Shown in pieces: positions 15,308-56,982 of a DNA stretch of 64,000 nucleotides (the stretch's first letter is position 1; each line of letters begins with the position of its first letter). The notes below the pieces were generated by a model. That model saw only the letters and a list, made by a program, of their open reading frames with translations. It did not search any database and had not been told where the DNA came from. This stretch comes from Strigamia acuminata (Eukaryota), in the NCBI GenBank assembly GCA_949358305.1, contig OX442314.1:25668001-25732000 (forward strand), given 5' to 3'. Made by a program: the position numbers and the translations under genes.

Positions 15308-15350
<43 letters not shown>

Positions 15351-15467: not shown

Positions 15468-15657
15468 TACGTTGCATAATAAAAACAATATCCTGTTGCA
15501 CACTAATCTAATATCTCCAGTTACTGTAATAATTGATAGCTATGAATACATGATAACTTAATTTTTTTTAAATTAAGAAAAATATTTAATATGACCAGGA
15601 ATTTATCATCAAGCAAGACAAACATAACAAGTCCACATCTATCAACTGACCATAATT

Positions 15658-21670: not shown

Positions 21671-21879
21671 TCATCTTGACCACGCCGTCCCGATTTCAGT
21701 CACGATTCGAATTTTGTGTGCCGTGTAACCTGCAAAAGCTAACACGTGTCAAACAAACGCGAAGTTTAATTTTATTTTGTCAAAAGTAAAGTTTAGAAGT
21801 GTTTCTTGTTGAAAAGTGTATTATATTCGTCTTCTTTATAAATTAAAGAATTAAAATCGTCAGATTTTGAATTTTTTTT

Positions 21880-25868: not shown

Positions 25869-26710
25869 CGTGGAGGTCCCACCGAGATTAGGTTGCAATT
25901 AAATTCGATTGAATTGCAACAGTGAATATTGGAGATAAATATTTAACTAAAAGATTTAAGTTAAAAATAGACAGATTAAATTTTCAGTTTATATTTCCAT
26001 GTGAAGAAGTTAAACTGATGAAATAGAAATACGTAGTAGATTTTCCTTCATTATTTTCGTTTGAAGATTTTAGGGATTTCAAAGACTACCACCTAATCTC
26101 ACACGTGGAGGTCCCACCGAGATTAGGTTGCAATTAAATTCGATTGAATTGCAACAGTGAATATTGGAGATAAATATTTAACTAAAAGATTTAAGTTAAA
26201 AATAGACAGATTAAATTTTCAGTTTATATTTCCATGTGAAGAAGTTAAACTGATGAAATAGAAATACGTAGTAGATTTTCCTTCATTATTTTCGTTTGAA
26301 GATTTTAGGGATTTCAAAGACTACCACCTAATCTCACACGTGGAGGTCCCACCGAGATTAGGTTGCAATTAAATTCGATAGAATTGTAAAAGTGAATTTT
26401 GAGATAAATATTTAACTAAAAGATTTAGTTAAAAAACAGACAAGTTTCAAACCATGTTTATTTTCTTGAGAAACACCAAAACAGTCCTTTAACTAGGAAT
26501 TTCGGAAGTTATAGACCTATCACACGATCACTGAAATAGGTTGCAAATTAATTCGATCGAATTGCAAAAGCGAATCTTGAATCCGATATTAACTAAAAAA
26601 TTTTAGTTAAAACAGACAAATAGATTTTCAGTTTATATTTTCATGTGAAAAGTTAAACTGACGAAATGGAAACGTTTAGTGAACTCTCTTTACTATTTTC
26701 GTTCGACAAT
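25864..26710 (+). repeat. 235-bp PBS-bearing tandem repeat: three PBS copies plus one degenerate unit
   Basis: PBS at 25871, 26106 and 26341 (period 235). The extra unit explains the offset shift from 7514 to 7749. Confidence 0.92.
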
Positions 26711-29628: not shown

Positions 29629-31110
29629 ATGGCTCAAAAACCATTGAATATGATCGATCCAAAAGGAAATAATAAGCAGACAAACTTAAATTTAAGTTCT
29701 GTACCACTTGGCGATCAAACAGAAAAGATTCCCGATCATTTTACTCTGTATTGTAATCGTCATGGACTGGATAAAACCAAGTTTAAAAATATAATCGAAG
29801 CTTCAGACTATGTAAAAGCTAGGAACTGGCGAGATCGTACCCAATCTCAATCTTCACATCAAGATCCAGTACGGAATCCACAAACATACAGCCGAAACTT
29901 AGTGAATCAAGATTCTCATACTATGTTTCAAACATCCAGTAGGGGATCTAAGTTAGAAAAGTTTAAACCACCTAATTCGGTAGATAAGGGGGAAGAGAAT
30001 TATAAACCTAATAATTCTCGTCCAGAGAGTTCGTTAACTAACCAGTCGGTTGTTCAGAACAAATTAAAACTCGTTTACAATCGAGATCAGCTAATTTCAG
30101 TTCGATATGCTAATCCAGCTGAAGCACAACGATATGTGGCTAGCCTTAATCTGTCGATTAACCTACCGCTATCAAAAGAATTGGGAACCGTAAACAAAAG
30201 TTTTGGGCCACCAATATCAACGCAAAGGAAAGATATTCGGACTCCAAACAAACATTTGCAGTCAAATAACGTACAACAACGTGCCCGATCGCCGATCACA
30301 AACTCATGTTTGCGGACGTATGATTTGTCTACCAAGAAGAGTCCCCAGCCAAGACAATTCTACCTAACGCCCATTTCAAATCGAAAAAAGGTCAAGCAAA
30401 CTTTTCCCTTGAAAAAGTATTACCAACACGATAATGAGAATGATTTTAAACCTAAAAAAGAAAGTTTTTTGACTAACCCACGGGAGATCCGGTATCAATT
30501 CGAACAGTATTGTAAACAATACCAGTTAAATTCAGCTGAATTTAAAAATATAAACGAAGCGCAACAATTCGTATTTCGAAATCAATACCGTAACCAACGA
30601 CTAAAACCCGTCCCAGTCGTCAATCTGACGGAGATACAACAATTTGCGTCTGGAAAGCAACCCTGCAATATCCAGAATAATTCATCTCAACGAGAGGAAT
30701 TAAGAACTTCAAAAAAGCGTTTTCGGTCACCAAGTCCAGCTGGTGATGAAGAAACTTCAAGTACAAACCAACATGTTCAAAAACTGACTGAAAACCCAGG
30801 TTTCCAATCATCAGTTCCACGACTTAGAGTCAAATATAGATCCCCTCGTTTGTTGCGGGATTTCACAATTCCAAATATGGGTCCTTTCCACGTATGGTTT
30901 TCCAATGAGGGTCCCATTCATGTATGGTTTTCCAGAGATGACCTAAAACAAAAAGTTGGGTCGTCACGGTCATTTACACTGCCAAGTGAGTACACTGTGT
31001 GTAACTGCCCAAAGAAAAAACGTCGAAAGAAATCAGTACAGCAGGCTGAGAGATCTCGGAAATTTGCAAATATGCGAGCTCAATATTTAGCAAAGAATCA
31101 TGTTGATTAA
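29629..31110 (+). CDS. Second copy of the orphan 493-aa protein
   Basis: ATG at 29629. Differs from copy 1 by H/R, N/S, Q/E, E/K and a few synonymous changes. Confidence 0.75.
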   Translation: MAQKPLNMIDPKGNNKQTNLNLSSVPLGDQTEKIPDHFTLYCNRHGLDKTKFKNIIEASDYVKARNWRDRTQSQSSHQDPVRNPQTYSRNLVNQDSHTMFQTSSRGSKLEKFKPPNSVDKGEENYKPNNSRPESSLTNQSVVQNKLKLVYNRDQLISVRYANPAEAQRYVASLNLSINLPLSKELGTVNKSFGPPISTQRKDIRTPNKHLQSNNVQQRARSPITNSCLRTYDLSTKKSPQPRQFYLTPISNRKKVKQTFPLKKYYQHDNENDFKPKKESFLTNPREIRYQFEQYCKQYQLNSAEFKNINEAQQFVFRNQYRNQRLKPVPVVNLTEIQQFASGKQPCNIQNNSSQREELRTSKKRFRSPSPAGDEETSSTNQHVQKLTENPGFQSSVPRLRVKYRSPRLLRDFTIPNMGPFHVWFSNEGPIHVWFSRDDLKQKVGSSRSFTLPSEYTVCNCPKKKRRKKSVQQAERSRKFANMRAQYLAKNHVD

Positions 31111-32659
31111 CATGATATGATACACAAAGATTCCCCGATTATAGTGTAAACAGAAAATCCTCTTCTAAAAATCATGACCTCTCTTCTAAAGAAAAGGGGG
31201 ACAAAATATAAAAGTTAGAATTAACAAAATTTTGAAAAGTAATGCTACATTATTAAGACAACTAGTTTAATTAAATTAGTCAATTGTACAAAGAATACCA
31301 AGTGACTCCGGTCATGACAATTAAGGGGGACAATTATGATTTCTTAATTGTCAACTCTTATCATCTAAAAGCTATTTATTGTATATTTATAGCGATACAT
31401 CTGACTAGGCATATGAAATAAATATTTTGTGATAACACAAATGATGATTTTATGTATGACGAAAAAAGCTTAACTGGTTCGGGGCCGATGGAATGGTCCC
31501 GGAGGCTATTTAAGACGTAATCCTGAGGGGGGGTGTCAAATGCCTTTGACACATCAGTTTTAGCCAGATTGAGTGTGTTAGCTTGATCACATGAGTGAGT
31601 GATGTAAAGGTACAGGGAAACGAAACTTTAGCATTGAAGCATTATTGTGTCGTACTATAACATGTTATAGTTATGACTTGATTCGTCAACAGTTGTGCTC
31701 GCCAAGATTTTTTGAAAAATAGTGATTGTCTACCTCTTTACATAGCTCCATTACGCCTTTTTTTAAGGGCCTTGGAGACCCATACATCCAATTTAGAAAA
31801 GTTTCCTGGGATATAGACGGTCTCAAATCTGTTTTAGTTTTTAATTTTATCTCATTCTGTTTACAAGTTATGAGATATATTGTAAATTGTCACTTTTTGG
31901 AGTTTTTAATTTTTTTCTCTTTAACTATTCATTTTTTTCCAAAAAACTTTTAACGAAATGATAGCTCTAATAATCCTTTAAATCCTCCTAAAACCATTTT
32001 TACTTGTGAGAAATAGTTTCTGAGAAATTTCAAATATTAAAAGTTTCAAAAATAGGAATATGCCATTTTTTTGGCAAGGAGTTGTATATTTTTATAATAT
32101 AAAATTTTAATTTTAATTTTAATGTTTTTTTATATGGATTATAATTACGAACTAATTATAATTAAACTATAATGATCAAAGAATCAATAAATTGAAACTA
32201 TTAAAGCCAGATTGTAATTAGCGTTATTTGTGCCACGAAAATAATTCACCTGCATTAGAATTAAGTACAGTAATTAAAATATTCAGCTATAAATGTCGGT
32301 AGTCAAAAGTTGCGTGTCATTCAGTTCCATCTTGACAATTCATCATCAATGCTCCTGAATAACTTTGGTAAGCATAAATAGTCATGTCTAGTATTATTTT
32401 ATTTTAGGCCTACTCTGATTTCTTTTAAATTCTATTACTGCGTTAACTTTTTAGTGTAAAAAAACAAACCTTTGATACACGTTTTCAAAAGAGCGTACTT
32501 ACATCAGACTTTATTGATTTTTTGCATTAGAATTAGAAAGAGTCCAACAATCTCAAATTTTATTTTATTTTTTAAATTTAAAAACAAAAAAAGCAAAAAG
32601 TGACTGGTTAATAAAGCCGTTAGTTAGTTAGGACATAGAGTAAAGACAGTAAGAGCTGT

Positions 32660-34130
32660 CACTCTCTGTGGGGCCTTTGAAACATTTTACTCCGTTGGGA
32701 CATTCTGTTGACAAATTTCCTGGTTCGTGACACTTAAAACATTTCAGCTCGTTTGTACAATCCGCTCTTTGGTGTTTTTCCTCGCCACATTTGAAGCATT
32801 TCAATCCTGCGTCGTATCCTTTGCCAGTTGGCTTTGCTGCAAGCGTCTTCCCTTTCGTCTAGAATAACGCGCTTTTTATCCGATCTTCAACTTCTTGCAT
32901 CGTCTCGACTATCTCGCTGATGTGTTGGTATTTTTGAAAATACATCGGTGTCGCTGCTGTCTTAATTTTCAGTCTATATACAGTAACTCTTCGCATCTTT
33001 GATTGTCATTCCCAAGTTTTCGCATGTCGCCCATTTTCGTCGCAAATAAGTCTCGGCGGCTTCGTCGTTCGTTTGCCGTGCTTGTAATAAGCGTTCCCTA
33101 TCTTTATACGTAAGTTGTCGTTCTGGAAAGTTTTTCTTCAACTCATTCGCCCATTCGTCAAACTTCCGTATCGTCGTTCCTGTGTTATCGTGCCATACTT
33201 TCGCCGGTCTGTCTAATGCCGCTGCCGCTGTCGTCACTTTGGTCATGTTCGTCCACTTATAATTATAATCTTATGCGTATTCATGAACGTTTCCCAACCA
33301 TTGAGTCGTCGTACGTAGCTCGTTCCGGTCGCCCGAAAATCGTGGTAATTTTGGCGCGTTCTTGACTTCTTTCGGCTCTTTTTGCATCAGCTGTTTAAAG
33401 ATCGCCGCCATTTGTTCCGTACTAAACATCCCGTTCGCTGGTTGTCCGTTTACTGCGCGTCTTTCGACGTCGTTTTGTTCTTTGATCGATTCGTTATTGA
33501 CTTCTTCATCTTCTTCTTCATATTCTTCTTCGACTCCCATTTCCGCACGTAACGTTTGTTGCAACAGATACTGCATTTGAAACTTTAACTTCGGTGACAC
33601 AATATTACGCGCAAGTAATAGTGGCTTAATCTCTTTTACTCTCAACTTATTCCATTCAGCATCGGTTGAAAGTTCTCCACGTCGGATCTTTGCTACGATT
33701 GCTTCTCTTCCGGCCACCTCGTAATTCGGTTCAACCTTCTTAAAACACGTGTTTGTTCCAGCAAATCGTCTTCTTTAGATCTCTGAACGGTCCACTTGTT
33801 TTATCGTTGTCTCCGAACGTTTCCGTCACAAAAGCAATTGTCTTCTCGTTTTATACTTCAATCGTTTCGTCTACTTATTCGTCTTTAGTTCGCATGAATT
33901 TGTTGTATCCCACTTCTGATGTAAACTATCTTAAATCTAAGAGTAGCTGACTTGAAAATAACATAACATGCACGCTGCTTAGTTTAAATTCAAGATCTTT
34001 ATTCTAATTTCAACACGAAAAGAAACGCTCCTATTGGCTAATTACAAATACGTTATCAAGACCTTTTCGTCTCGATCCCTTTCTCGTTCTCGTGTTCGTT
34101 TCGTGTTTCTCGGAAACCCGAAAGTTCACA
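32660..34130 (-). mobile_element. Decayed mdg3-like Ty3/Gypsy remnant: LTR 33920-34130, PBS-Leu 33907-33919, interrupted gag
   Basis: gag-like fragments 33271-33717 (LPRFSG..QWL) and 32974-33246. Two zinc knuckles, CFKCGEEKHQRADC and CFKCHEPGNLSTEC, at about 32700-32800. In-frame stops; no pol. Confidence 0.8.
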
Positions 34131-41419: not shown

Positions 41420-42272
41420 TAACCTTACAATAAACAGTACACCCCTTCAATACCTCAAATGAACCTCCGAACAAAGCTCACATTCATACAACAGACATGT
41501 AAACATAATAAACATAACAGTAAACATAATAAATCATCTGATAACACGAGAATTTTGTGTAAAATCCTGTGCTGACTGTAGTGGAACGATAAAAACAGCA
41601 CGACCTTTGGATCGTCGTATTCAAGGTCTCTCTTAGTCACGAATTTCATAGTTGTATCAAATGATGTTTTCATTATGACTCAAAATGTTGAATTAATATT
41701 TCATTATCTTTGTAACACAAGGAGGTCATCATCCTATTAACAAATAGTTCTAATACTCATGTTGAGTTAATTCTTTATTGAATGTCACCTGGTGTAAAAC
41801 ATGTAACACAGTTGCAGTGTTTTATTAAAGGCGCCAACTTTTTCCAATATTTTTTCATTTTTTATTTTAAAATACTCATACGCACTGATCACGTTAAATT
41901 AAGATAGAATTACGTTTTATGTTTTGTGTTTTGGATTTGCACTAAATTGTCTCACCAAATCCCTAATTCTAATTTTCGTTCGCTCAAATTAATTAATTTT
42001 AGTAAGTGCGTACTAAAAAATCCCAACAAAGCGCCAACCATTTAATCTAATCATTCAAGTCTCATATACCAAGGTCAAAAGCAAATGGCCATCATATCTA
42101 TTTTTTTAAATATCGTCGTATATAAAGGATTATCATTATCAACATCAACCTTTTTAGCACATAACTGCAATGACAATGGAACTAACAAATTTCAACAATA
42201 TCATTTACGAATACAGCCAAATTATAACTGGGCTGACAATCATCATTACTGCGTTGCTGTACTTGAAACCAC

Positions 42273-43093
42273 TGTGGTGACCCAGTTGGATAAGTGTCCC
42301 CCCAGGGCGGATACTTGTCCTATGAGTCACTATGATTAAAGAGTCGTTCCCCCCCGAGTTGGCTCCACCTCCCCATGGCAGGTGTGTGCCCCGAGGGGGA
42401 GGAAGCGGCTGGTGGTCAGCCCCCATTGGTTGATCGCCGGCCCTTCACCCCACTGCATAAAAGGCTGTGTTTCCCGCCTAAAGACAGAACTTACACAAAC
42501 GACACCAAGAACACAGCAACTACCTCACCGTCAGGCCAACTTCAACTACAAGTTAGGATTGATCGAGGATCGCTGAGTAAAGTGCAAACTGTAACTCTCA
42601 CGAAGTCACTTGCGAGCTATTCCTGCGAAAGCACGAGAATAGCCCTTGTGAAATCACCCAGAATAATCGCCCAGACGATTATTCGCCGAAGTAAGTGTCC
42701 GAGTGCTTTGTAGGGAACCCCAAAGTTCCTAGACGAGGCCTCTGCGACGCTAAACCAAAACCTAGACAACAGGCACGGATAGAAGACTCGAAAGAGCATT
42801 CCACCGCGTCCGTGAAGACGAATCCGTGACGAATTAACGACAACTCGAGACGCCGCCTTTGTTCCGCCGACCACGCGGAATCGACGACGCCATCTTGAGA
42901 AATCCTTTGTTCGACGCTGACCACGTCGACTCTAGAATTATTACTGAGTGTATTTTAAAGGCATAAAGCCTGGTGAATAAATTACCTGTTTATTTACATA
43001 CATTTAGTATTCATTTGGGTATTTGCATAATTGATCACAGGTAAAGTATTACACGTTAGCGCTATTTAAACCTATACCAAGTAGGACGCGACA
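42273..43093 (+). repeat. 5' LTR
   Basis: TGTGGTGACC...GGACGCGACA; no differences from 54323-55143 noticed. Confidence 0.97.
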
Positions 43094-43095
43094 CG

Positions 43096-43113
43096 TGGGG
43101 GCCCGTCCGGGAT
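43096..43113 (+). other. Primer-binding site, tRNA-Pro
   Basis: TGGGGGCCCGTCCGGGAT, one mismatch from canonical PBS-Pro TGGGGGCTCGTCCGGGAT. Confidence 0.9.
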
Positions 43114-43187
43114 TTAGAAATAAATCTCAAATCTGAACTTGTGATCTCTCAATAAGATAACCCAAACCGTAGAATTACCGAAAGAAA

Positions 43188-46100
43188 ATGTCAGACAAAG
43201 ATGAGCAATCCACGTCTGACACCGAGCAGAGAATGCCCGAGAAGGGAAAAAGGACCTCCGACTACCACCTAAGGTCGGATGGTCCCGTCCCTGAAATGTC
43301 CGCAAAGGCGAAAGCCCGAGCGAATAAAAGGAGAGCGAAGGCGCAGAAAGAGGAGCAAGCTGCATCGCTCGCGGCCCTAGACGGGCCAGAGCGAGAGCGG
43401 GTTCCCTTGAATATGCAACCCTTCGAAGATACCGATCCGGAAGCCATAGAAAATCGAGAAGAAATTCGCGAGGTATCACCAGGACGAGTATCGATATTGA
43501 TGACCGAGGAGACGGATGAAGCTCCGAAAAGAACGGTCACGATCGGCACAGACCCATCGCCACCAACGGCTCAGACGTCCGTAAAACAAACCCCACGGAA
43601 AAACGACGGCGGGACCCCGATAACCCCCCGAGTTACGGCGAGTCCTGCAGTTGTTTCCTTCGAAGTATCTCACCTAATTCGGTTGACGCAGCAAGCTGCC
43701 CAGCTAAAAGCGATGATAGACATTCCAGTAGGAACGTCAGTCTGGGAATCGATTACCCTACTCACTGACGCTATCTGTGCGGCACAAGCCCCGACGCCGG
43801 TCGCAAGACCAGCAGCGGAGACGCCCATGCCCCAGGTAACGCCCAGTGACACCGGAGGTTTCGCGCCAGACCCCAACCGAACACTTCACGAATCCAGAGA
43901 GAAGGCCCGCGAGGAAGCCAGACAAGAAGCGACTAGTCGCCAACGAAGGCTGAGCGCAGAGCGGCGAGAACTCTGGAAGGAAGAGGAAGAAAGGGAGCAA
44001 CGCGAGAGAAGAACCACCGAGAGAACAGAGAAACTGGTCCAAAAAATGAGGGAAGAACGAGAAGCTAAAATTCGAAAAGAATGGAACGCAACAGTAGAAG
44101 GGCGACATCGAGAAGCTCAAGAGTACGAGGACCAATTTCAAGCGCTAATAGCTCAAAGAAAAACAGAAAAACTACAAATGTTGCGAAAAGAGGCCATTCT
44201 ACAACATCAGAAATGGGAAGAACAACATCGCGAGAGGTTGAGAGAAGAGGAAGCCAGAAAAGGAAAAGAACAGTTTCTGAAAGAGAAAGAAGAGTGGGAT
44301 CGAGTCAGATGGACCGAAGAGTACAAAGCGAAGAAACAAGCTATAATAGATGAGCAAAAAAGATGGGAAGCCGAAAACTGGGAGAAGGAGACAGAAAAGT
44401 TCCAGAAAGAGTACGCACAAGACGTCTCGGACAGGAAGAAAAATGAAGAAAACCTGAAACGGAAACCAGAACCCCCCAGCGGCTCTGATACCGACACAGG
44501 AGAAGGTGCAACAAAGCCGGCAAAAACGGCGAAAAGGGGGAAATCTCAAAAGAGAGACGAGTCGGTCCCAAAAACAAAGGGCCGTCACCCCTCAAAAAGA
44601 TCCGAGACGGGAGCAGCCATCGACGCGTTACTCGAAAAGAAAAACGCAAATAAAAATCGGGAACGCCCCGAAAGCGAGGAAAACAGATGGCATTCTTTTT
44701 ACGAGAACAACGACGGAGGGGAGCCGCCGCCATCCGGAGGCTCGAAACAGAAGAAGGCTGGCGGAGAGACCCCACCGAGAGGGCCGAGGTTTCACCCCCA
44801 AGGAGATCCCTCCGAGCCCTCCGATTCGTCGGACGACGACCATCCGAGTCGACCGTCTACAGGGAGGAGTCAAGAAGACAGCGATGGGCACCGGTCGAAC
44901 CGGCCGAATGCTTCAGACCGCTCCTCCCGGAGCTCCAACCCTCGTTCGGAGGAAGGGAACTTTCAGGACTCATCTGGCCGACATTACACGATGTCTGAGC
45001 TAGGCCGAGCCCTGCTGAACTCTTTCAGAAGAGAAGGAATAGATCTAGGCCATCCAGGCGACGAACATAATCGCGCCGGAGAGAGGGTTAAGCGCAAATA
45101 TGGCGTACGAAACGAACCAAGCAGCGAAGCCACGGGTAACATCCGTTGGCAACACTACATACAAACACGATTCGACGGTTCGTGGAAGGCCGGAGACCGC
45201 TTCCTAGACGAAGTAATGCGTATCAAGAAAGCGACAAAAGCCACCGTCGCCGACATGCTAACCCACGGTCTAGTGGAGCTAACCACGGGGTCAGCTCGAG
45301 AATGGTATCAGGGACTGAAAAACCCAACCTGGGACGATTTTCTCGTCCGTTTCGATCTCCGATACGGCGAGACTCCAGACGAGATCAGTAACAAATTACG
45401 TGGTCTACGGCAAGCCCCAGGAGAAACATTAGCCGACTACGACGCCCGAGCGAAACTCCTGTTTGCAAGAGCGCCGTACGAAATAAACCCCGCTGGTTTT
45501 ACGATGATCTTTTACGGAGGATTATCGGCCCACTCGCAAAGAATTCTGCTAGACATGCGTGCACCTCGCACTGGCGATTACCAAGATGTCAGTAACTATC
45601 TTCTAACAAACACGTTAGAAATAGAACAGCGGTATTACGCCACTCTGCCCCCGGAGGAAGCTGACGCACACGAGAAACGGTTGCAGACGAGTGCCGAACG
45701 TCACAAGACCTCAGAAAAATTAATGAGGCCAAGTGAATATTTGAGCGGCATAATGAGTCTCACCGAAGCATCCTTCGGACGAATGCTGACGCCTAAAGCA
45801 GGCAGTATTCTTCCAGCCAACCCGATAGCTGCCCCAAAGAAAGCACCGGCAGCAACGGCGATGCAGGTGACCTCGACGGACTCCACCCAGATGGAGAAAG
45901 TCGAAGAGACAACACCTCTCGCCACGGCTAAAGAAGAGGAGCCAGCATCAAGCGACGAGGAAGCCCTAAATGAGCACCTCGAAAACTTGTCGACGGGATG
46001 CGACGATCAAGGTCCCTATTTGCACCATGCACACCGGGCCTTAGCAATCGCACAATTCAGAGCACACGTGCAGGCAACAAAAGCGAGAGGGGCATTGGGA

Positions 46101-46328
46101 GGAAAAAGACGATTCCCGACGCCCTTCGTCCCGAAAAAACCGGGATTCACTCCCACAGGGGATAAAAGTAACATCAAATGTTACAGCTGCGGAGAATACG
46201 GTCACTACTCCGACAAATGCGAAAAAACCGTCAAAGAAAAAGGCATCATGCAAACCTTGATGAAAATGATGATGGAGTTAAATACTAATCTAGCAAAAAA
46301 CTCCCAAGCGCAGGCGTCGCCGAAATAA
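43188..46328 (+). CDS. gag: Gag polyprotein, 1046 aa, with long charged N-terminal extension
   Basis: First ORF after the PBS. Capsid-like region (AREWY..WDDF..F..RY..LRQ..GE) and CCHC knuckle CYSCGEYGHYSDKC. Confidence 0.92.
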   Translation: MSDKDEQSTSDTEQRMPEKGKRTSDYHLRSDGPVPEMSAKAKARANKRRAKAQKEEQAASLAALDGPERERVPLNMQPFEDTDPEAIENREEIREVSPGRVSILMTEETDEAPKRTVTIGTDPSPPTAQTSVKQTPRKNDGGTPITPRVTASPAVVSFEVSHLIRLTQQAAQLKAMIDIPVGTSVWESITLLTDAICAAQAPTPVARPAAETPMPQVTPSDTGGFAPDPNRTLHESREKAREEARQEATSRQRRLSAERRELWKEEEEREQRERRTTERTEKLVQKMREEREAKIRKEWNATVEGRHREAQEYEDQFQALIAQRKTEKLQMLRKEAILQHQKWEEQHRERLREEEARKGKEQFLKEKEEWDRVRWTEEYKAKKQAIIDEQKRWEAENWEKETEKFQKEYAQDVSDRKKNEENLKRKPEPPSGSDTDTGEGATKPAKTAKRGKSQKRDESVPKTKGRHPSKRSETGAAIDALLEKKNANKNRERPESEENRWHSFYENNDGGEPPPSGGSKQKKAGGETPPRGPRFHPQGDPSEPSDSSDDDHPSRPSTGRSQEDSDGHRSNRPNASDRSSRSSNPRSEEGNFQDSSGRHYTMSELGRALLNSFRREGIDLGHPGDEHNRAGERVKRKYGVRNEPSSEATGNIRWQHYIQTRFDGSWKAGDRFLDEVMRIKKATKATVADMLTHGLVELTTGSAREWYQGLKNPTWDDFLVRFDLRYGETPDEISNKLRGLRQAPGETLADYDARAKLLFARAPYEINPAGFTMIFYGGLSAHSQRILLDMRAPRTGDYQDVSNYLLTNTLEIEQRYYATLPPEEADAHEKRLQTSAERHKTSEKLMRPSEYLSGIMSLTEASFGRMLTPKAGSILPANPIAAPKKAPAATAMQVTSTDSTQMEKVEETTPLATAKEEEPASSDEEALNEHLENLSTGCDDQGPYLHHAHRALAIAQFRAHVQATKARGALGGKRRFPTPFVPKKPGFTPTGDKSNIKCYSCGEYGHYSDKCEKTVKEKGIMQTLMKMMMELNTNLAKNSQAQASPK

Positions 46329-49300
46329 ATTCAGCTTCGTCTGCGCCAGCCGCGGAAATTAAAAAGAAGAAATATCACACTGGACCCGCAGGTCATGCCT
46401 TGGCAGAAGCACAGATCAAAGATCGCATGCAGACCATTCCGAAGAAGGAAGAAACAGTGACGCTGACAAGTATGCAAGTGAGAACGAAGCCGGAGGTCGA
46501 CATAGATTGGACGGACCTCCCGTTCAATCTGGAGGTTGAGCCCCAAACATTACGCGTTTTTCACTGCAATGTCACGAAAACACATTGCGAAACTCTGTGT
46601 ATGCTGCCAGTGGAGATCGAAAACCAAAAATTGTTCGGTCTGCTGGATTCAGGAGCAGATCGTTCATTCATATCCGAAGATATAGTAAAGGACTTGGATA
46701 TTGAAAAAAAGGTGGCACAAGTGAACGCGAACGTAGAATTGCTCACCGCCAACGGCTACGTCAAGCCGAGGGGCGTAGTTCGCATCATGATCGACTGGAA
46801 AGGGGGGAACCTGTCCCACCCCTTCATAGTCTTGCCATCCCACGACAAAGTATTCCTCTTAGGGATGGATATCATGGCAAAACTGAAAATTCAGCCAAAC
46901 CCGATAACCCGTTCATGGAACTGGATAAGTCCCGAGGGAGAACGGCCAGTCCCCGTAGTTCCCCAAAAATTACTGGACGAAGCCAAGGACAAAGAGGAAT
47001 ACGGAAGAGGATTGCGAAAATTCGTCCAAGATTACGATTTCGCAGCCTTCACTCTGGAATTACAGAGGAGTAACGTCGTGGACACACTGGTCGAGGAGGC
47101 AGCACTGCGTGTTGACGAGGCATCGCTACTAAGGCGAGTGCTTCGAAAACATGAAAGAATTCTGACCAAGACACCTGGTCGAACGACGGAAGCAACCCAC
47201 GAAATAGTCTTAACCACAGACAAGCCGATTCGAGTGCCTTACAAGGGGATGAACCCCCAGAAAAGAGACATTGTGACGCAGATGTGCCAAGACATGCTCG
47301 ACAAGGGCATAGTAACTCAAGCGCTGGGCGAATACGCGATGCGGATCGTCCTGGTAATGCGTCCAGGCTCGGAACCTCGACTATGCATTGATTATCGCCC
47401 CCTGAATGCGATAACAGTTATAGACCCGATTCAGATGCCATCTATAGACTCGATCCTCCGGGAACTGAGCCCGTTCAAGTGGGTAACCACGATGGATCTG
47501 TCAAAGGGGTATTGGCAAGTGGAGCTAAAACCCGAAGACAAACTAAAAACGGCTTTCTACTCCCCGATAGGAAGATTAATGTTCAACGTGATGCCGTTCG
47601 GGCTTGTAAACGCCCCGAGCACGTTCCAGAAATTGATCGAAAGCGTGTTGGGAGATATGCTTCACGACTTCGTGTGGGCGTATCTCGACGACATAATAAT
47701 AACGTCGGACACATTCGAAGAGCATATAGACCACATCGACAGAGTGGTCTCTCGCCTAGCCAAGGCGGGACTCCACATCCATCCAGGGAAGAGCAAGTTT
47801 TGCAGAAAAGAGCTTGCCTTCCTAGGATATCGAATAGGAGTCGAGGGAATCGCGATTGACCCCGAAAAAGTCAAAGCAATAAACGGATTCCCCGCCCCCG
47901 AAGATATAAAAGGTGTCCAGAGATTCATGGGCATGGTCAATTTCTTCGGCCGACTACTCTCTGGTCTGGCTGAAGTGGCCGCGCCTATAACGGATCTCTT
48001 ACGAACGGATAAAGAGTTTGAGTGGACGGTCCAGTGCGAGGCCGCATTTAGCACTATCAAGCAAATGCTGGCTGACGTCGAAAAGATGCCATTGCCGGAC
48101 CTAAACCGACCGTTCGTGTTGCACACCGACGCGAGTAAAATCGGACTGGGTGCAGCCCTTCTGCAGACCCACGTGTACAACGGAATCTCGCAAGAAGTAC
48201 CCTGTATGTTTATAAGCAGAAAAATACAGGGCGCGGAGAAAAATTATACGGCAACGGAACTAGAATGCCTAGCCGTAATTTGGGCAGTTCGGAAATTTCG
48301 CGACTATCTGGAGTACACGAACTTCGAGGTTCAGACAGATCACCAGGCACTAAGCTGGTTGATGAAGCTCAAGGAACCCTCCGGCCGACTCGCACGATGG
48401 CAACTGGAGTTAATGGCGTGCGATATAACAATTACGTACCGCCCCGGGAAGTACAATCATGTGGCCGACGCCCTCTCGAGAGCCCCAGCCTCTGACCCCC
48501 AGGGACCAGACGACGACGGCGAGGACGACACCCACCTCTTGTACTGCCCGACTCCACGGAGAATATGGCGTTTGCGAAAGGCGAACGAGCTACCAGTGAT
48601 GGAGCCTGAAGATAGAACGTTTTGTGGTTTTTGGACTCGAACATACCAGCCAGCTGGGACAAACAATTCAACATCCGAAATTCAATCTCCGCCCCCCGGA
48701 GAAACCCACAAAACACTACTACGCGCCTTCACAGCAAAAATTGAAGAAAAAACACAATACGCTCCACCCACGAGACGTGAGTTCGTCGAACACCAGGCAG
48801 CAGACACAAAATGTCAAATTATAACGCAATATTTGCTGAACGGCGAATTTCCGGAAGGGATGACAAACCCACACCGCCGGAAACAGTTCGTCAAAGAAGC
48901 AACAAGCTACCTCATAGATGATGAACTCCTGGTAAAATACCACCCGACGTTTCAAGATGACCTCAGCGGAGCGGGAAACTCGGTTAAAGTGGTCGTGCCG
49001 GCATCGCTGCACACCCGACTGTTGTGGCTGATGCACGGACACCCGCTCGCCAGCCATTCTGGCGTGGCGAGGACCCTTTATCGAGTAAAACAACTTTTCT
49101 TCTGGCCGGGCGCGCGGCAAAAGATAACGAAATTTATCCGACACTGCCCCCGGTGCCAAGCGTGCAGACCGCGAGATAAAGTGGCCAGAAACGCCATGTC
49201 TCTCGGACCCTACGCACCGTTTGACTGCTTAAGCATAGACTTGATGGGCCCCAAGCCCACAACGGGAAACAAGAACATGTATATTCTCGTAATTATGGAC

Positions 49301-50431
49301 GTGGCCACCCGATGGCCGGAGCTGTACGCCCTCGCGAAGCCCTCGGCTGAAAACATAGTCGAGTGCCTTTACGACGTGGCAATGCGATTTGGGTTTCCCA
49401 GAAAACTCATTTCGGATAACGGCCCCCAATTCCGATCGAGAATATATAAGGACTTCTGTAGAAAATTTAAAATGGATGCATCAAACACCTCCACGTATAA
49501 TCCTCAGACAAACCCAGTCGTGAGATTAAATAAAGACATAAAATATGCGCTGACAGTATTCACCGATATTCACAATCGATGGGACGAATACCTGCGAGAA
49601 ATCGCTTTCAGCATTCGCTCAACCGTGTCAAGAACACGCGAATTCTCACCGGCGTACCTCAACTTCGCCCGCGAATTAAGGATGCCATGGGACCCACGCG
49701 TTGCCGAAGCTGTTAACGTATTAGACCCATCGAGCCCACACGAGTACGTGTGCCGGTTGGAACAGACTATATCCGACACATACCAGCATATGATGGCGCA
49801 TATTTTCAACATGAGAGAAAGAATCGCAGATAAAGAAGGCGATCTCGCTTTCGCGAACTTTAAAGTGAATGATCTAGTGTGGAAGGAGGCACACACGTTG
49901 TCCAATGCAGCGAGGGGCATCGCCGCAGGTTTAGCCGACAAGAGGGACGGTCCCTATGTAATTGTGGCCGAACACGGCGGCAACGCATACCAACTACGCC
50001 GCTTAGAGGACAACAAAAATTTTCAGTCGATACATGGCCGAGATTTAAGGCCATATCTGCCAGAATTTCCACAGGAAATTTGGCTGGAAGGTCAGACACA
50101 CAGCGGCCAAGGGGGCACCGTGGTCGACACGTTCCAAAAAACAAATGAAGCTGAAAATATAGCGGAGAACGAGGATGAATTCTTCGACGCCGAATCCCCA
50201 GCCGACGAGGCTCCAGCTCAGCCGGAGCAAGCAATTTCGGAGAGGGAGGAAGCAGAAGAATGTACTTCTGAAATGGAAAATAAAAAAATTAATAATGAGA
50301 AAAATGCCAACACATCGGAGATGAACGAGCAAGTAGAGTCACGATCTACGAGCACGTCGAAAATCAACCTTCGACCACGACGAAGCAATAATCCGTTCAT
50401 TCGGGACGGCAAAGTCGTGGGGAAGAACTAA
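46295..50431 (+). CDS. pol: Pol polyprotein (protease, RT, RNase H, integrase), via -1 frameshift
   Basis: LLDSGA, YLDDII, LHTDAS, H..H..CPRC, SIDLMGP/ISDNG, GPY. The -1 frame is open from the slippery site A AAA AAC at 46295-46301. Confidence 0.96.
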   Translation, partial: KKLPSAGVAEINSASSAPAAEIKKKKYHTGPAGHALAEAQIKDRMQTIPKKEETVTLTSMQVRTKPEVDIDWTDLPFNLEVEPQTLRVFHCNVTKTHCETLCMLPVEIENQKLFGLLDSGADRSFISEDIVKDLDIEKKVAQVNANVELLTANGYVKPRGVVRIMIDWKGGNLSHPFIVLPSHDKVFLLGMDIMAKLKIQPNPITRSWNWISPEGERPVPVVPQKLLDEAKDKEEYGRGLRKFVQDYDFAAFTLELQRSNVVDTLVEEAALRVDEASLLRRVLRKHERILTKTPGRTTEATHEIVLTTDKPIRVPYKGMNPQKRDIVTQMCQDMLDKGIVTQALGEYAMRIVLVMRPGSEPRLCIDYRPLNAITVIDPIQMPSIDSILRELSPFKWVTTMDLSKGYWQVELKPEDKLKTAFYSPIGRLMFNVMPFGLVNAPSTFQKLIESVLGDMLHDFVWAYLDDIIITSDTFEEHIDHIDRVVSRLAKAGLHIHPGKSKFCRKELAFLGYRIGVEGIAIDPEKVKAINGFPAPEDIKGVQRFMGMVNFFGRLLSGLAEVAAPITDLLRTDKEFEWTVQCEAAFSTIKQMLADVEKMPLPDLNRPFVLHTDASKIGLGAALLQTHVYNGISQEVPCMFISRKIQGAEKNYTATELECLAVIWAVRKFRDYLEYTNFEVQTDHQALSWLMKLKEPSGRLARWQLELMACDITITYRPGKYNHVADALSRAPASDPQGPDDDGEDDTHLLYCPTPRRIWRLRKANELPVMEPEDRTFCGFWTRTYQPAGTNNSTSEIQSPPPGETHKTLLRAFTAKIEEKTQYAPPTRREFVEHQAADTKCQIITQYLLNGEFPEGMTNPHRRKQFVKEATSYLIDDELLVKYHPTFQDDLSGAGNSVKVVVPASLHTRLLWLMHGHPLASHSGVARTLYRVKQLFFWPGARQKITKFIRHCPRCQACRPRDKVARNAMSLGPYAPFDCLSIDLMGPKPTTGNKNMYILVIMDVATRWPELYALAKPSAENIVECLYDVAMRFGFPRKLISDNGPQFRSRIYKDFCRKFKMDASNTSTYNPQTNPVVRLNKDIKYALTVFTDIHNRWDEYLREIAFSIRSTVSRTREFSPAYLNFARELRMPWDPRVAEAVNVLDPSSPHEYVCRLEQTISDTYQHMMAHIFNMRERIADKEGDLAFANFKVNDLVWKEAHTLSNAARGIAAGLADKRDGPYVIVAEHGGNAYQLRRLEDNKNFQSIHGRDLRPYLPEFPQEIWLEGQTHSGQGGTVVDTFQKTNEAENIAENEDEFFDAESPADEAPAQPEQAISEREEAEECTSEMENKKINNEKNANTSEMNEQVESRSTSTSKINLRPRRSNNPFIRDGKVVGKN

Positions 50432-50811
50432 AAATAAAAGAAAATGTGATAACATGGAGCGGAGGCCTTGTAAAATAAAAAGATTTACTTACGAGAGCTG
50501 CTGCACATGTTGAAACGCGAAAATTTGGCTAAGTCCAAACTTCGCAACGAATTGTCGCAGTCACCACTAACAGACGAGAAGTTATGACGTATCGGGCGAC
50601 CACGTGACAATGAAACCACGCGGTCGACCCCGTAGCGTCATTGCCAGCACGGCGGATCTCGCAAAATACGAGACGCGTTCGAGACCCACAATTCTCAGCG
50701 TCGATAGGCCCAGTTTCCGACTGTTTTTAACACGACGAGACGTGTTTTTGCTTCTCCCCCAAAGAGAAAGACAAAGACCTCTCAAACAAAACTTCATTTT
50801 CCTAAATTGAA

Positions 50812-53800
50812 ATGGCCGATCGACGCAACCCACGATTAGAGCCGAGCGCATCGTCGAGAGACGAGAGCGACGGCCTAATCGTAAATGCAGAAGACGATGA
50901 GAATTGGGACGAACAACCGCCGTTGCAGGTAAATTAGTGTGATTTCCCCAGAGAAATCACATAATTCTTTGAATCTGTTGCATCCAACCCAGATTGGAGC
51001 GTGACTTGTGACTGATATATTTCTTTCTGTTTTATTGTTGATTTAAGGCTGGCTAAAAACCCGAGAGTGGACCCAGATTCACCTCGGAGTCAAGGCCGCC
51101 AAAAAACTAGAACAAAGGAAGTGTTCGCGGAATGGCGTCGTGGCAAACCAAAACCAAAACTAAAGGTTTTCTTTCTTTTAAAATTAAACATCGTAATAAA
51201 TTAAAATACGATTAGAGTTAAAATAAAAAGTTTAACGTAATATTAAGAATTTAACGATCGGTTTTGCCTGCGACCCCTTCCTAAAAAGCGGATCACCTGA
51301 GTTCAAAGGTAGTGTTGGATCAGCGCTACGACGGCGGAGATCATCGCAGAACTGCGAAACAAGAAAATAAGACCGACGGCCGCAACAAAAGAAAGGAGTT
51401 GCTGCCACCGTCGATCTTGAGCATATTTCTGATCCCCATCGTTAAACTGGGATTTATTATATTAATCTTGTGATCTAAAATTATTCAGGTCGACCCGCTA
51501 GAATCGTGGGACGCCCTGCCTTCGACGGTGTCAACCGCCAACAACATCTTTCGCGGAGCCCTGCCGATTTACCTGCGGCAGGCCTATCCTGCAGAGACCA
51601 GCGCCTGGAAAATCCGATTGATGTACTCCAGGACCCTCGAGGAAAAATTCGAGCGATCGAAAACGCTGGTCGAGTGCATGACGAAGGAGATGAGGGAGCG
51701 AGTGGGGCCGCGGATCCCACCCGATGCGGATCCGCCGAGCCCCGTTTACTCCGGGTACCTGGAAGAGGCTTACCCAGGCACGGTGGCCGAGCTGCACACC
51801 TCCCATAGGTGGAGCGAGGCCCCGACCTTGGCAGCCCGCCAGAGAATAGTGGACGACGAGATCAAACGCTTAAAGCGCACCGAGACTCACGGAGTAACCC
51901 GAGTTCTCGAGAGAAACGGTTTCTCCCCCGAAGAAATCCGTAGATGGCTTCGCGACATCGAAGAAGATCATCTGACACCCAGATGGATACCGCCGGCGAA
52001 TTTTACGGCCACGCAGTCTGAGATGTGGCAGTTATACCACGCTGGTATCCTGGGAAGTCGCCGCCATCACAGAAGATCGAAGCGTCCGGCGGAGTCCGCC
52101 CCACGCGGACCCGCACGAAGAAGACAGGCCGTCTCCCCAATAGAGGCCGGCCCGTCAACGAGCCGCGACTACCGCAGCCGCTCGAGCAGCTCCAGTTCCC
52201 GAACTCGAGTTGTCGTGCGCTCGGAGTGTCGCCGAGTAGTAACGCTCGAGCCTGCCTCGCCAGACGACGCGCGGGCTGAGCGAACAGTCGAATCTTCCGC
52301 CCACTGGGCTGCGAGGACCGAGACACACCAAGATCGAGGAAAGAAAAGATCCTCGTTGTTCATGGCGATTACCACACAGTCGTCAGATCAATCCTCGTCG
52401 CGACGAACCGTCTCATCACACCAGAGACCGAATTCTCCGACGGACGTCCCCCAGAGGACGGCCCAACGAAGATCCGTCGCAGCCAGCACCCGGAGGAATC
52501 GAAAGCGCAAAGTACGTCAGAAGTTGCGAGCACAATCCCTGATAGCTAAGGGATTAGAGAAGGAGCGAGAGATGGCCGCCGCGAAACGGTCCGAACCCCA
52601 GAGTCTCGGACCCACGGCTGGACCGTCCAGGCGCCAAGCAGAGATTGATTTGGGAGAGTTGACGGAAGAGCAAATGTCCCCAGATGAGTCGGACAAAGAT
52701 GGGCCGGTTACAAAACAGGATCTGGCCGTAGCATTGAAGAACGCCTTCCGAGGATACGCGGCCAACCGGCCGTCGGGCTCAACACCGGCTGTGCCCACCG
52801 CGCTTGTGCCCCCACAAGTGCAATCGCGATGGCCGCCACTCCTCGAGGGTACAAACCCAGCCGTGACCGCTTGGACCCCTCCCCGGATGATTCCGGTGGG
52901 GGATCCAGCTCCGAAGCGGGTCAGATACGATAATCTACCCGGGCTGGGCCGTCCACCGTCACCCCCAACGCCACGAGTGTGTCGACCTTATCGCAACGCC
53001 GAATGGTACGCCCAGCGAGAGATGGACGCTCGATGCCGGCGTGAAGCGGCCTATCCCCCACTCAGCGAGCTACAAGAATATCTGGCCGAATACGAGAACC
53101 CCGCGATTGCCGAGTTGGCCATACGACAGGCCGACGCCGCCCAAACCCACCACATCAATTGGGCGATCGAACAGATGCGGACGCTGTCACAACAATTCAG
53201 TGGCAATCCGGACCGCGCTCACCCCTGCCATCGGAGCAGTTTGAATTTGGCAGTGACGAACGTCATGGCCCAGCTGCTGTCCCTGGGCGTCTTCTTGGAC
53301 AGTCGGCAGGCTATGGCGGCCTGGACAATCGTCGACCGTGAGGGAGTTCACCTTCCTCGGGCGTTGTACCAGGTATGGGCCGGATGGACTCCTGAGCCCG
53401 CCTCGCTGCGCTTCGACCTGGCCAGGAATACGGAGAACCCAGGCCTGCAGTTTTCGAAGATGCGTTCGTTGGCATTCCGCTACCGGAACCCCGGAGTCCA
53501 CCCTTCCTTGTTGCGAACAATTCGGGAGGCTCCGGAGATACCGGGAACGACAGCGAGCCTCCCACAGGCCATCGAGACCGCCCCCCCAGAGGCGGCGGTC
53601 CAACCATACATACCGACCCCAAAGCCGGTATTCCCGAAGGAGAAGCGACATGCGAATCGACCCATATTGATTCCGAAGCGTTCCAAGCGAGGACCCCGAA
53701 CTCCTCCGCTGCCCTCTCCTTCACCACCAGCGGCAGGGCTGGCCGCTCTCTCTGCAGAGCCGGCTACGCCACCGTTGGAGAGCCCAATGGAGATTCCGCT

Positions 53801-54275
53801 CCCACCATCGCCTCCGCCGCCCCCAGCAGCGCAGCTTTATTTGAGGCTGGGAGTGGAATACCCCTTCCTTCAGATGTCGGAGTTCACGCGACAACGCATC
53901 ATTGACTCCGACGATCACGGCGAATCAATCCTCAAATGGCTAAACAGAGAAGCCCGATCCACCATGGACGCCGTCTTCCATCGCCGTATCCTACGGGCCC
54001 ACAGGAAACCCGGATCGAGCGCCGAGTCGCGAAGGATCCGACTCGTCCCCGATCGATTCCCCGCGTCTACCCGGATTTGGATCCATGAGCGTACGGGGTT
54101 GGTTGGCGAGCCAGCCGGCAGTCACCCGCAGTACTTCATCAACGAGCGACAAAATCCTGCGGATCTGACAACCTCTCTGCCCCCGGATTTACCACCGCCG
54201 CCACCGGCAGTGCCACCCGTGATCCTCCGCCCATGCAGAGGAGTGCTGCCGGCTCTTCGCAGAGGAGAGCGATGA
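50812..54275 (+). CDS. Third gene of the Gypsy element, unknown function; predicted join(50812-50928, 51489-54275), about 967 aa
   Basis: 928-codon open frame with a stop at 51471 and no nearby ATG, preceded by acceptor TTATTCAG|G. An upstream 39-codon ATG exon ends CAG|GTAAAT. Both junctions are phase 0. Confidence 0.7.
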
Positions 54276-54310
54276 GAAAATTGAGATCGCTCCGATCCGA
54301 GATCGAAGCT

Positions 54311-54320
54311 GGAGGAGGGA
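54311..54320 (+). other. Polypurine tract
   Basis: GGAGGAGGGA two nt before the 3' LTR. Confidence 0.85.
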
Positions 54321-54322
54321 CG

Positions 54323-55143
54323 TGTGGTGACCCAGTTGGATAAGTGTCCCCCCAGGGCGGATACTTGTCCTATGAGTCACTATGATTAAAGAGTCGTTCC
54401 CCCCCGAGTTGGCTCCACCTCCCCATGGCAGGTGTGTGCCCCGAGGGGGAGGAAGCGGCTGGTGGTCAGCCCCCATTGGTTGATCGCCGGCCCTTCACCC
54501 CACTGCATAAAAGGCTGTGTTTCCCGCCTAAAGACAGAACTTACACAAACGACACCAAGAACACAGCAACTACCTCACCGTCAGGCCAACTTCAACTACA
54601 AGTTAGGATTGATCGAGGATCGCTGAGTAAAGTGCAAACTGTAACTCTCACGAAGTCACTTGCGAGCTATTCCTGCGAAAGCACGAGAATAGCCCTTGTG
54701 AAATCACCCAGAATAATCGCCCAGACGATTATTCGCCGAAGTAAGTGTCCGAGTGCTTTGTAGGGAACCCCAAAGTTCCTAGACGAGGCCTCTGCGACGC
54801 TAAACCAAAACCTAGACAACAGGCACGGATAGAAGACTCGAAAGAGCATTCCACCGCGTCCGTGAAGACGAATCCGTGACGAATTAACGACAACTCGAGA
54901 CGCCGCCTTTGTTCCGCCGACCACGCGGAATCGACGACGCCATCTTGAGAAATCCTTTGTTCGACGCTGACCACGTCGACTCTAGAATTATTACTGAGTG
55001 TATTTTAAAGGCATAAAGCCTGGTGAATAAATTACCTGTTTATTTACATACATTTAGTATTCATTTGGGTATTTGCATAATTGATCACAGGTAAAGTATT
55101 ACACGTTAGCGCTATTTAAACCTATACCAAGTAGGACGCGACA
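54323..55143 (+). repeat. 3' LTR
   Basis: Direct repeat of 42273-43093. Confidence 0.97.
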
Positions 55144-56982
55144 CCACGTAAAAATTTGCCGCCAGGACCGTGGAGCTTGCCGATAGTAGGTTATCTTCCA
55201 TTCTTGAAAAAACCGCCTCACTTAGGAATTACTGAGTTAGGAAAGAAGTATGGCAGTGTCATGAGGTAAATTTTATACTAAAAATTAACATTTTGTTAAA
55301 TAAATATTTTGTTATCGTAGCTTTTACTTAGGGAGTGTGTTGGTCATAACATTGTGTGATTATAAAGCCATTAAAGAAGCATTTGTAAAGAAAGGAAATA
55401 TTTTTTCTGCGAAACCAAAAGCCAATGTTTTTAAATTTAGTTCCAACGACAAAGGTAGAAATCCTTTTCTTATTTTCTATATCAATTATGCTGATATTTT
55501 AAAATCTGTGTGTTCATTTTATGATATTTTTAGGTCTTTTGATGTCCGACGGCGAAATAGCCAGTCAACATCGTCGGTTTATTCTTTCAAGTTTCAGAGA
55601 TTTTGGAATGGGGAAAACCAGTCTCGAGCCACAATTAATGGTACTTGTTGCATTTTCGGCTCTTAAGGTGGAAACACAAGGGAGCGAGTAAAATTTAAAA
55701 GCTTGCTTTTACTTGAAAAAGCAACTAAAATCTCGCCCGCTTGAGCAAACACCAACTTGCGTTTTTATTCAAAGCTTTGTTTTGAAGCGAGCTTGTACTC
55801 ACTGTACCCGCTCCAGGTTCAAGCTTGCTGGTGTTTTGGTCATGTGACTTTGACAGCCAATCAGAATCGTGAAAAAATTGTTGTACACACATTCGTGATT
55901 CGGCTATCAGTTCAACTGTAATAGATAAAAAAAATCATATTTACCACATAAAACAAATGTTTAATAAATATTGCAGCTAGAAATCAAGTACTTTATGGAT
56001 GAAATCAGAAAAGAAAATGGAAAAGCTATAGATTTGCAACCACTGTTACGCACAAGTGTGTCAAATGTAATATCTATGCTTGAATTTGGGAAGCGATTTG
56101 AATACTCAGATGAAGAATTTATTCGCCTTAGAAAATTGGTAACAGACAACGCACAATTTAATGGATCTTTGGCAATACGTGTATTCCTTCCATGGATAAA
56201 ATATATCCCCTTCAGTGACAAATTTATAGGATTTCACAAGACGAAGTAAGCTACTTTTGACTCCCAAAGACTAAAAGCCCTTCCTTGAATATTTTCTTTC
56301 TGAAATATTTACCATTTCAATTGTATTGTTTCTCATTTTCGGGCAATATTTCTAGGCGAGCTATTAGGTTAAAGAAACTACTGCCCCCAAATTTCTAGTT
56401 GGAAAAATACGAAACAGCTCTAACTCCATGAAGTAGAATTTAAAAATCTTTGGTTGACCTAAAGCAGCATTTCGCAAGCCGGTTTTTGGAGCTTCTATAT
56501 TTCTAACATGTCTAACATGGGCCCGTCACTCACAGGGCGGTTAGCCCGTGAGTGATGTGGTCGGTTGGCATATGACATTCTGATGTGGTACTTACCTACA
56601 GCCCATGTAGCTGCTCAAGAAGGTTGCAACAAGGACATCTCCCTGTCACTGAGCGTCACAGTGGTGAATGGGAGAAAAGCAGAGTCAACTCGGGCACTGC
56701 ACTGCCCAGGCTGGCTACGGGACCTCACTAGCACACGTCCTCACCCGGTGCTGTCCAAACTCTCTCTCCCACACCACTCAGCTCCCTCCTTCCCCACTGG
56801 GTCAGTCTACCCTGCAAGAGGGGTGACCAGGGGCTAGAGAGCAGTGTGTGGAGTGACGTGGGTCACTGTGGATGGCCAGACAGTCACAAATTTGTTCCCA
56901 TAGCTCAACCTATCCAGATTTCCCGATACTTAATTTGTTCTCAGTCCAGCCCTGGCTGTAGTTGTAAATAAAATCGACTGTA

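Follow-up and report, generated by a model that had tools for sequence, protein, structure and literature searches.

The window, a stretch of 64,000 nt from the genome of Strigamia acuminata, contains a Ty3/Gypsy element on the forward strand (42273–55143) that consists of an LTR pair, gag, pol and a third open reading frame, here called ORF3; an AT-rich cluster of P450 genes flanks the element. Comparison of the window with itself reveals an exact repeat of 822 nt (42273–43094 equals 54323–55144), one base of which is coincidental, so the LTRs measure 821 nt: the 5′ LTR (TG...CA) occupies 42273–43093 and the 3′ LTR, of the same sequence, 54323–55143. Within the 5′ LTR are a TATA-like site at 42456, donors at 42691 and 43041 and an AATAAA at 42976; no ATG occurs from 42378 to 43187. 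The likely tRNA-Pro primer-binding site lies at 43096–43113, and beyond its first 8 nt we take it to match tRNA-Pro. Those first 8 nt are the same as in the tRNA-Pro primer-binding site given for Cer1 in PMC3315495; the Osvaldo-like elements of Culex, unlike this element, prime with tRNA-Lys (PMC3286476). A purine-rich tract (54305–54322) precedes the 3′ LTR. gag (43188–46328) encodes a C-terminal CCHC knuckle and shares its last 40 nt with pol (46289–50431), a slippery heptamer lying at 46295; Pfam matches in pol follow the order PR-RT-RNaseH-INT. The LTR pair with its target-site duplication of 4 bp (42269–42272 on the left, 55144–55147 on the right), the primer-binding site, the purine-rich tract and the order of domains are those of the Metaviridae.

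The insertion is very recent or polymorphic. Positions 1–16443 of the window are duplicated at 33724–63042 with 99.98–100% identity, and the element is found in the second copy only: the first shows an empty site near 8542–8549, with the 4 bp in single copy. The closest RT relatives of the element are ~45% identical. An RT phylogeny, suggested along with the original prediction for this locus, was computed with FastTree from 116 sequences (of 120 matches plus the window; rows with fewer than 230 aligned residues were dropped). It makes the element sister to the protein P0050 (support 0.988) within a clade of 10 that includes tick-derived sequences (support 0.715, which is weak), but the reference set was one without named elements and the tree assigns no named Gypsy lineage (Osvaldo, Mag, mdg3, errantivirus or others).

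The main exon of ORF3 (51489–54275, forward strand) lies in the env position, between pol and the 3′ LTR. Its frame runs for 933 codons from stop to stop (51474–54275), of which 928 are counted from 51489, and is shut upstream by a TGA at 51471–51473, as originally predicted. When this stretch was shuffled 1000 times, the longest open frame reached 370 codons at most, with a median of 174; in the real sequence, the other five frames contain 13–26 stops. GC content is 61%, against 50–52% in gag and pol. The encoded protein begins with a conserved N domain (about residues 4–113), continues through a basic low-complexity linker to a conserved helical middle domain (about residues 525–644), and ends with a Pro-rich stretch followed by a C-terminal part that is not common to its one homolog, P0121 (below).

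The view that this protein is not an envelope is borne out. A hydropathy scan (not a dedicated predictor) found no hydrophobic window near the N-terminus of ORF3; the first-exon peptide, in which 11 of 39 residues are D or E, does not have the character of a signal peptide. The best 19-residue Kyte–Doolittle window (1.65) corresponds to a single marginal helix within the conserved middle domain, and the five top windows all fall at residues 583–605, none near the C-terminus. There are six scattered Cys, one N-glycosylation sequon and four RX[KR]R sites. The basic runs reported earlier (RRNRKRK, PKRVR and PKRSK) are all present and, judged by such motifs only, the protein is probably nuclear; two loose regular-expression matches resemble export signals. 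AlphaFold returned a model with helices only and long disordered Pro/Ser-rich regions (mean pLDDT 41). ORF3 is a third, non-env gene of a recently inserted Ty3/Gypsy retrotransposon, and very probably a functional one.

A full HMMER search of 1,835,955,588 representative proteins with ORF3 gave a single match: P0121, a JGI/IMG protein of 525 residues from a contig of 2921 nt (E 6.3e-8). The two align in two collinear segments, at query residues 6–108 (31/104 identical) and 525–644 (27/120), and in both proteins the linker between these segments is basic. The score of the middle-domain alignment was reached by none of 500 shuffles, and this segment is not the best stretch, the one that retrieved P0121; residues 775–900 of ORF3 are without counterpart (473 of 500 shuffles were as good). 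The best hydropathy window of P0121 is 1.33. Its model, built from three alignment rows, has a mean pLDDT of 54, with a helical domain at ~315–441 reaching 65–86. Structure prediction thus yielded helical models, but of low confidence and with no convincing known fold: neither model contains strands, and the C-terminal part of ORF3 is at pLDDT <50.

Searches for families and folds returned no known env or accessory family in Pfam, PDB sequences or folds. Even with E values up to 1 admitted, neither the whole of ORF3 nor any of three parts of it matched a Pfam family, GDSL and DEDDy domains included, and a PDB sequence search with ORF3 gave no match. Foldseek with the P0121 model against PDB and BFVD found nothing at E 0.001, and the VIA fold search a best Z of 6.3 and none of at least 8; both effectively cover residues 335–443 of that model. 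Homology to F or gB fusogens was likewise absent from the Pfam, PDB-sequence and fold matches, the models being of low confidence. A word-based protein search with ORF3 found none among 7987 candidates (lengths 513–1633 only), the search with profile A2 (7996 candidates) returned P0121 alone, viral contigs held nothing matching ORF3, profile A2 or pol, and the ESM Atlas no usable match for the ORF3 middle domain or P0121. The DNA of P0121 itself was sought and not found. As to relatives that keep ORF3, P0121 is a single distant homolog, but 80 metagenome Gypsy loci gave none (best tblastn E 0.19, best HMM E 0.4); the integrases of these loci are only 25–33% identical, so close relatives of the element are not covered by that search. 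In the literature we found no description of this element or protein, though published element tables, such as those of PMC13524379, may include relatives. Together, ORF3 and P0121 make up a protein family that matches nothing in Pfam, in PDB or among the viral folds searched.

The candidate first coding exon (50812–50928; 117 nt, 39 codons) encodes an acidic peptide, MADRR...PPLQ, and ends at the element's best donor (CAG/GTAAAT). The predicted GT-AG intron (50929–51488, 560 nt) ends with TTCAG/GT; phase is 0 on both sides, and the frame continues into ORF3 just as had been proposed. The earlier description of the intron as AT-rich applies to its spacers (22–36% GC), but not to the whole, which has 39% GC and includes two islands of ~50% GC. 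Splice models were trained on 19 donors and 20 acceptors of the flanking host P450 genes, in which 12 of 18 donor-acceptor intervals are 51–96 nt and six are 323–1117 nt, some of which may span an unmapped exon. The donor at 50929 ranks first among 477 GT in the element by the host-trained model and first among 472 by U1 match. The acceptor at 51488 ranks first among 900 AG in the pooled model, with a score <2 in the unsmoothed position-specific model (host 7.4–17.2); a competing acceptor at 51047 is second in both.

The best argument for the intron comes, in our view, from P0121. In the main exon no in-frame ATG occurs until residue 45, and 11 of the 31 identities in the N domain precede it: residues 1–44 score 57 against P0121, compared with 27.8 ± 4.1 for shuffles (0/500 as good), this piece being part of the stretch that retrieved P0121. 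With conservation ahead of the first ATG, translation must begin upstream of the TGA at 51471, and splicing solves that. We therefore consider splicing into 51488 likely. In the alternative, translation starts at the ATG at 51621, either on an RNA made from an internal promoter or through internal entry of ribosomes in a structured region. Stretch 50432–51488 could then be a promoter-proximal or entry element, and AATAAA motifs at 50433 and 50474 could terminate a gag-pol transcript. This alternative nevertheless discards the conserved residues 1–44 and offers no account of the donor and acceptor that rank highest, and we regard it as very improbable.

As to what is joined to 51488, the exon at 50812 is somewhat favored over gag. 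An in-frame, phase-0 donor at 43836 in gag would join Gag residues 1–216 to ORF3; it has 7/9 matches to the U1 consensus, but falls outside the top 15 of 477 in the host-trained model. P0121 carries a short acidic leader, 49 residues from its first Met to the domain as against 39+5 in ORF3, a similarity of length and charge that favors the exon at 50812; in sequence, the leader and the exon-1 peptide are not alike (308/500 shuffles as good). For the 5′ end of such a message, the original prediction had named the LTR donors 42691 and 43041 and an acceptor at 50764. Both donors have 7/9 matches to the U1 consensus and the AG exists, but the latter is weak (score −8.6, host range −2.8 to 8.2; rank 184/900). 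Of the proposed splices, the one from LTR to leader is thus the least secure, and the message may instead arise at an internal promoter lying upstream of exon 1 and still lose the intron.

Variation among copies was taken from contigs of two runs of one study, which cover introns evenly, as DNA would. Contigs matching the stretch number 3077 and 10982 in the two runs and include many intermediate variants, as expected of a multi-copy family; contig depth does not give copy number. Contigs with a depth of ~14,600 cross both the donor (50827–51032) and the acceptor (51408–51521) unspliced. The intron is therefore a trait of the family that survives reverse transcription, in agreement with the original prediction, and genomic RNA must escape this splice. 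No GT..AG joint occurs among 15 of the 23 joints found nor at the one in 50432–51950, contigs being able to show presence and not absence.

Indels are unevenly distributed. Among 12 of the 14 indel entries in 50432–51950, which fall at 11 places, six places are in the leader, five in the intron and none in the 579 nt of coding sequence (P 0.005 if independent, 0.06–0.09 when treated as 5–6 clusters), a bias weakened by the fact that AT-rich runs pick up indels more easily. Across the element, none of 12 of the 27 indel entries shifts the frame of gag, pol or ORF3, and a 3-nt indel at 54274 keeps the stop at the same codon. Substitutions were counted from 40 of 330 places across the element plus 14 in 50432–51950: among these, synonymous changes make up 5/8 in ORF3, 1/2 in exon 1, 17/19 in pol and 5/11 in gag. 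For ORF3 and exon 1 jointly the synonymous excess is weak (p 0.11; about one third expected for transitions).

A reading of ORF3 as a passenger acquired from a host or virus, with at most a minor function, is consistent with its 61% GC, with the non-significant synonymous excess and with the possibility that P0121 lies outside any retrotransposon. Against this stand the frameshift-free indels listed for ORF3, beside flanking non-coding parts that carry many indels, the 2.8-kb open frame, the intron kept through retrotransposition and the lack of a cellular family or fold match; this reading is quite improbable.

The non-coding leader between pol and exon 1 (50432–50811, forward strand) is predicted to be strongly structured and is rich in indels near the weak acceptor at 50764. 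When the element is cut into 21 tiles of 560 nt, tile 50369–50928 ranks first, with a folding excess of −52.9 kcal/mol over block shuffles, and the intron tile fourth (−30.7 kcal/mol). The intron (560 nt) has a fold z of −5.1 against dinucleotide shuffles and about −4.9 against block shuffles (0/40 at each of two block sizes); it is predicted to form a three-domain structure whose stems take in parts of the competing acceptor tract and of two internal donors. In 120-nt windows it is unremarkable (mean z −0.59), all 21 element tiles fold better than shuffles, and 4 of 25 host tiles equal it. The intron accordingly lies inside a predicted structured RNA of 1.1 kb, though the entire element folds well. 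The 18 places that vary in non-coding sequence are unpaired at a higher rate (0.56) than background (0.36; p 0.02, base-matched 0.009), these places being clustered rather than independent and several leader variants falling in predicted stems. A model of whether loss of the upstream leader frees the donor at 50929 compares unpaired probabilities of 0.32 and 0.36–0.50. An Rfam search gave two weak matches only, both below gathering scores.

A transcript with near-ideal splice sites whose full-length form must reach the cytoplasm creates a need for export control. We tentatively propose, as the most plausible of the explanations considered yet possible rather than probable, that ORF3 is a nuclear factor of the Rev/CERV kind that exports unspliced genomic RNA. 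Default splicing would remove two introns, one reaching from an LTR donor to near 50764 and the other running from 50929 to 51488, and the product would be an ORF3 protein of ~967 residues; if the gag donor 43836 were joined to 51488 instead, a Gag-ORF3 fusion would result. Nuclear import and RNA binding would fall to the basic runs, and self-association or the binding of a host factor to the two conserved helical domains. ORF3 would bind the RNA 50432–51488, which is mostly missing from its own mature mRNA, and its binding would let gag-pol/genomic RNA leave the nucleus unspliced. The links from ORF3 to this RNA and from ORF3 to export are functional steps that we infer from the anatomy. In its fullest form, the proposal amounts to an independent invention, in a non-nematode animal Gypsy lineage, of a Rev/RRE-type system: a new two-domain family, made from the default-spliced message, that binds a ~1-kb RNA over its own first exon and intron and switches expression from spliced to genomic RNA. 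This specific version we consider rather unlikely.

HIV-1 Rev is far smaller than ORF3, and homology to it was neither found nor expected. What might be shared with Rev and its response element is the logic: a protein from spliced RNA that binds structured RNA and brings about export of the unspliced form (PMC10309623). The closer comparison is with CERV of Cer1, a Ty3/Gypsy element of C. elegans: CERV is made from a spliced mRNA, is nuclear and is required for export of genomic RNA (PMC10309623). Like CERV, ORF3 would be a large orphan protein with a basic nuclear-localisation motif and structured domains on flexible linkers, its splicing being predicted; as in Cer1, consensus splice sites must apparently be skipped by genomic RNA, and the primer site appears to be for tRNA-Pro (PMC3315495). 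CERV has 517 residues from five exons partly common with gag and contains a G-protein-like domain as well as a Cys loop; no obvious homologs of it are reported beyond nematodes (PMC10309623). ORF3, unlike CERV, is a separate frame of 928 codons after pol, predicted to be helical and poor in Cys. Its middle domain has one Cys, not conserved in P0121, and the invariant Cys loop of CERV is absent; ORF3 may therefore work like CERV without being one. No CERV occurs among the matches of the HMMER and word-based protein searches with ORF3. Counting against an export role for ORF3, the structured RNA of the element could recruit host NXF1 directly, as the RNA of Mason-Pfizer monkey virus does without a viral protein (PMC10309623).

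The original prediction did not consider export; it proposed a nuclear accessory protein, for example one that counters silencing or transactivates. The nuclear part is consistent with the basic motifs, which recur in the P0121 linker, but no specific sign of either activity was found. A nuclear regulator of chromatin or transcription that targets the LTR would account for the basic runs in ORF3 and P0121 and for the long disordered Pro/Ser-rich regions; the GENE23 product of Grande is nuclear, regulatory roles have been proposed for plant additional ORFs (PMC7264820), and the many variant contigs in both runs indicate that the family has amplified. It has against it that ORF3 matches no family known to bind DNA or chromatin, that its six Cys are scattered and form no conserved Cys/His cluster, and that the structured block beside the splice sites is left unexplained. 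We regard such a regulator as somewhat unlikely; export would fit the anatomy somewhat better.

The in-frame donor at 43836 opens another route, in which a Gag(1–216)-ORF3 fusion would act as a Gag-associated RNA chaperone or scaffold for capsid assembly, trafficking or nuclear entry, and export would be left to RNA structure and host factors alone. The phase and U1 match of this donor, the basic, disordered linker of ORF3 and the N-terminus that CERV has in common with Gag (PMC10309623) agree with it; but the donor's rank is low in the host-trained model, the exon at 50812 ends in a stronger donor and begins with an ATG in favorable context, and P0121 has its own short leader rather than Gag. 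We consider this unlikely. That ORF3 is a diverged env, or some other fusogen used in spreading between cells, is scarcely credible, despite the env position, likely expression by splicing and four RX[KR]R sites, since a signal peptide and C-terminal membrane helix are lacking, Cys (six) and sequons (one) are few, the best P0121 window is 1.33, and errantivirus env ectodomains are flanked by a signal peptide and a membrane helix or by two membrane helices (PMC13524379).

Non-env third ORFs have already been described in rotifers (PMC5408684) and plants (PMC7264820). LTR retrotransposons of bdelloid rotifers likewise carry such an ORF after pol, typically expressed from spliced messages, but theirs encode GDSL esterases, DEDDy exonucleases, coiled-coil or membrane proteins, whereas ORF3 here belongs to no Pfam family and, unlike them, has a predicted intron within its own coding sequence (PMC5408684). 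Among plant additional ORFs, GENE23 of Grande is a conserved orphan between pol and the 3′ LTR; one such protein is nuclear, and a role resembling that of retroviral accessory proteins has been proposed (PMC7264820). These ORFs are mostly antisense with their own promoter, whereas ORF3 is animal, on the sense strand and predicted to be spliced. The env genes of errantiviruses (F-type and HSV gB-type) have the same position, but ORF3 is without signal peptide, membrane anchor or Cys-rich ectodomain (PMC13524379). What sets the present element apart is its protein family, together with the predicted intron that interrupts the coding sequence and the predicted structured RNA next to it. How RNA with good splice sites is exported is known for few LTR retrotransposons, and apart from CERV our literature search found no export protein encoded by a Gypsy element. 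The element offers a testable second candidate, in which the family is young, the splice sites are clear, the candidate RNA element has defined limits and two domains are conserved. Should ORF3 turn out to have another job, it still forms with P0121 a protein family that matches nothing in the databases searched.

Two islands within the intron were considered as coding exons and rejected. The first, 51048–51165, is open for 39 codons in one frame, yet out of frame with exon 1, and all 19 host donors score higher than its own (4.8); the second carries 1-nt indels among copies. The intron may hold a non-coding or poison cassette. A divergent contig matches 51286–51397 at ~90%, similarity in one contig starts at 51484, five bases ahead of the main exon, and loose contig ends at 51160, 51286, 51446 and 51484 coincide with the edges of the AT-rich spacers.

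Gag of the Ty3/Gypsy element is unusually long, at 1046 residues counted from the first methionine, and a long charged, coiled-coil-like stretch in its N-terminal half (43173–45000) precedes the capsid-like part. In the integrase of the element copy in the window (48929–50080), the last of the three acidic residues that make up the catalytic triad is missing; the residue is present in all three aligned relatives. Because of this absence the copy may rely on other copies for integration.

The LTR contains a donor at 42691 together with acceptor-like sites at 42960, 43007 and 43040, the last of which (43040/43041) is readable both ways: as acceptor and as donor. Given this combination of sites, the LTR may have an intron of its own. 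In ORF3, the third gene of the element, a 10-bp hairpin (50937–50962; predicted pairing probability 0.89–0.97) begins 8 nt past donor 50929, the 5′ splice site of the predicted intron. It could be that the predicted hairpin tunes use of this donor.

Three Gypsy loci from metagenomes have in common an ORF of 157–190 codons immediately after the integrase (L002, 4822–5293; L005, 2437–3001; L008, 2482–3052). These ORFs are 31–50% identical; they differ from, and are unrelated to, ORF3 of the Strigamia acuminata element. Unassigned ORFs are likewise located after the integrase in L004 and L006.

Elsewhere in the window are weak gag-like fragments of other retrotransposons, both below the Pfam cut-off, at 13574–13873 (E 0.004) and, on the minus strand, 32974–33774 (E 0.008). 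A tandem duplication with a unit of 7.5–7.7 kb and 99% identity (16443–31464) carries a 496-codon ORF (21871–23361 and 29605–31110), for which a Pfam search returned no match above cut-off. Self-comparison revealed two copies of a 16.4-kb P450-cluster stretch (1–16443 and 33724–63042; 99.98–100% identity), with the Gypsy element in the second only; the repeat is either a duplication of very recent date or the result of an assembly that placed two haplotypes one after the other. Long P450 introns contain strong inverted repeats (1600–2159, 3000–3700 and 5735–6359), which are likely small non-autonomous DNA transposons.
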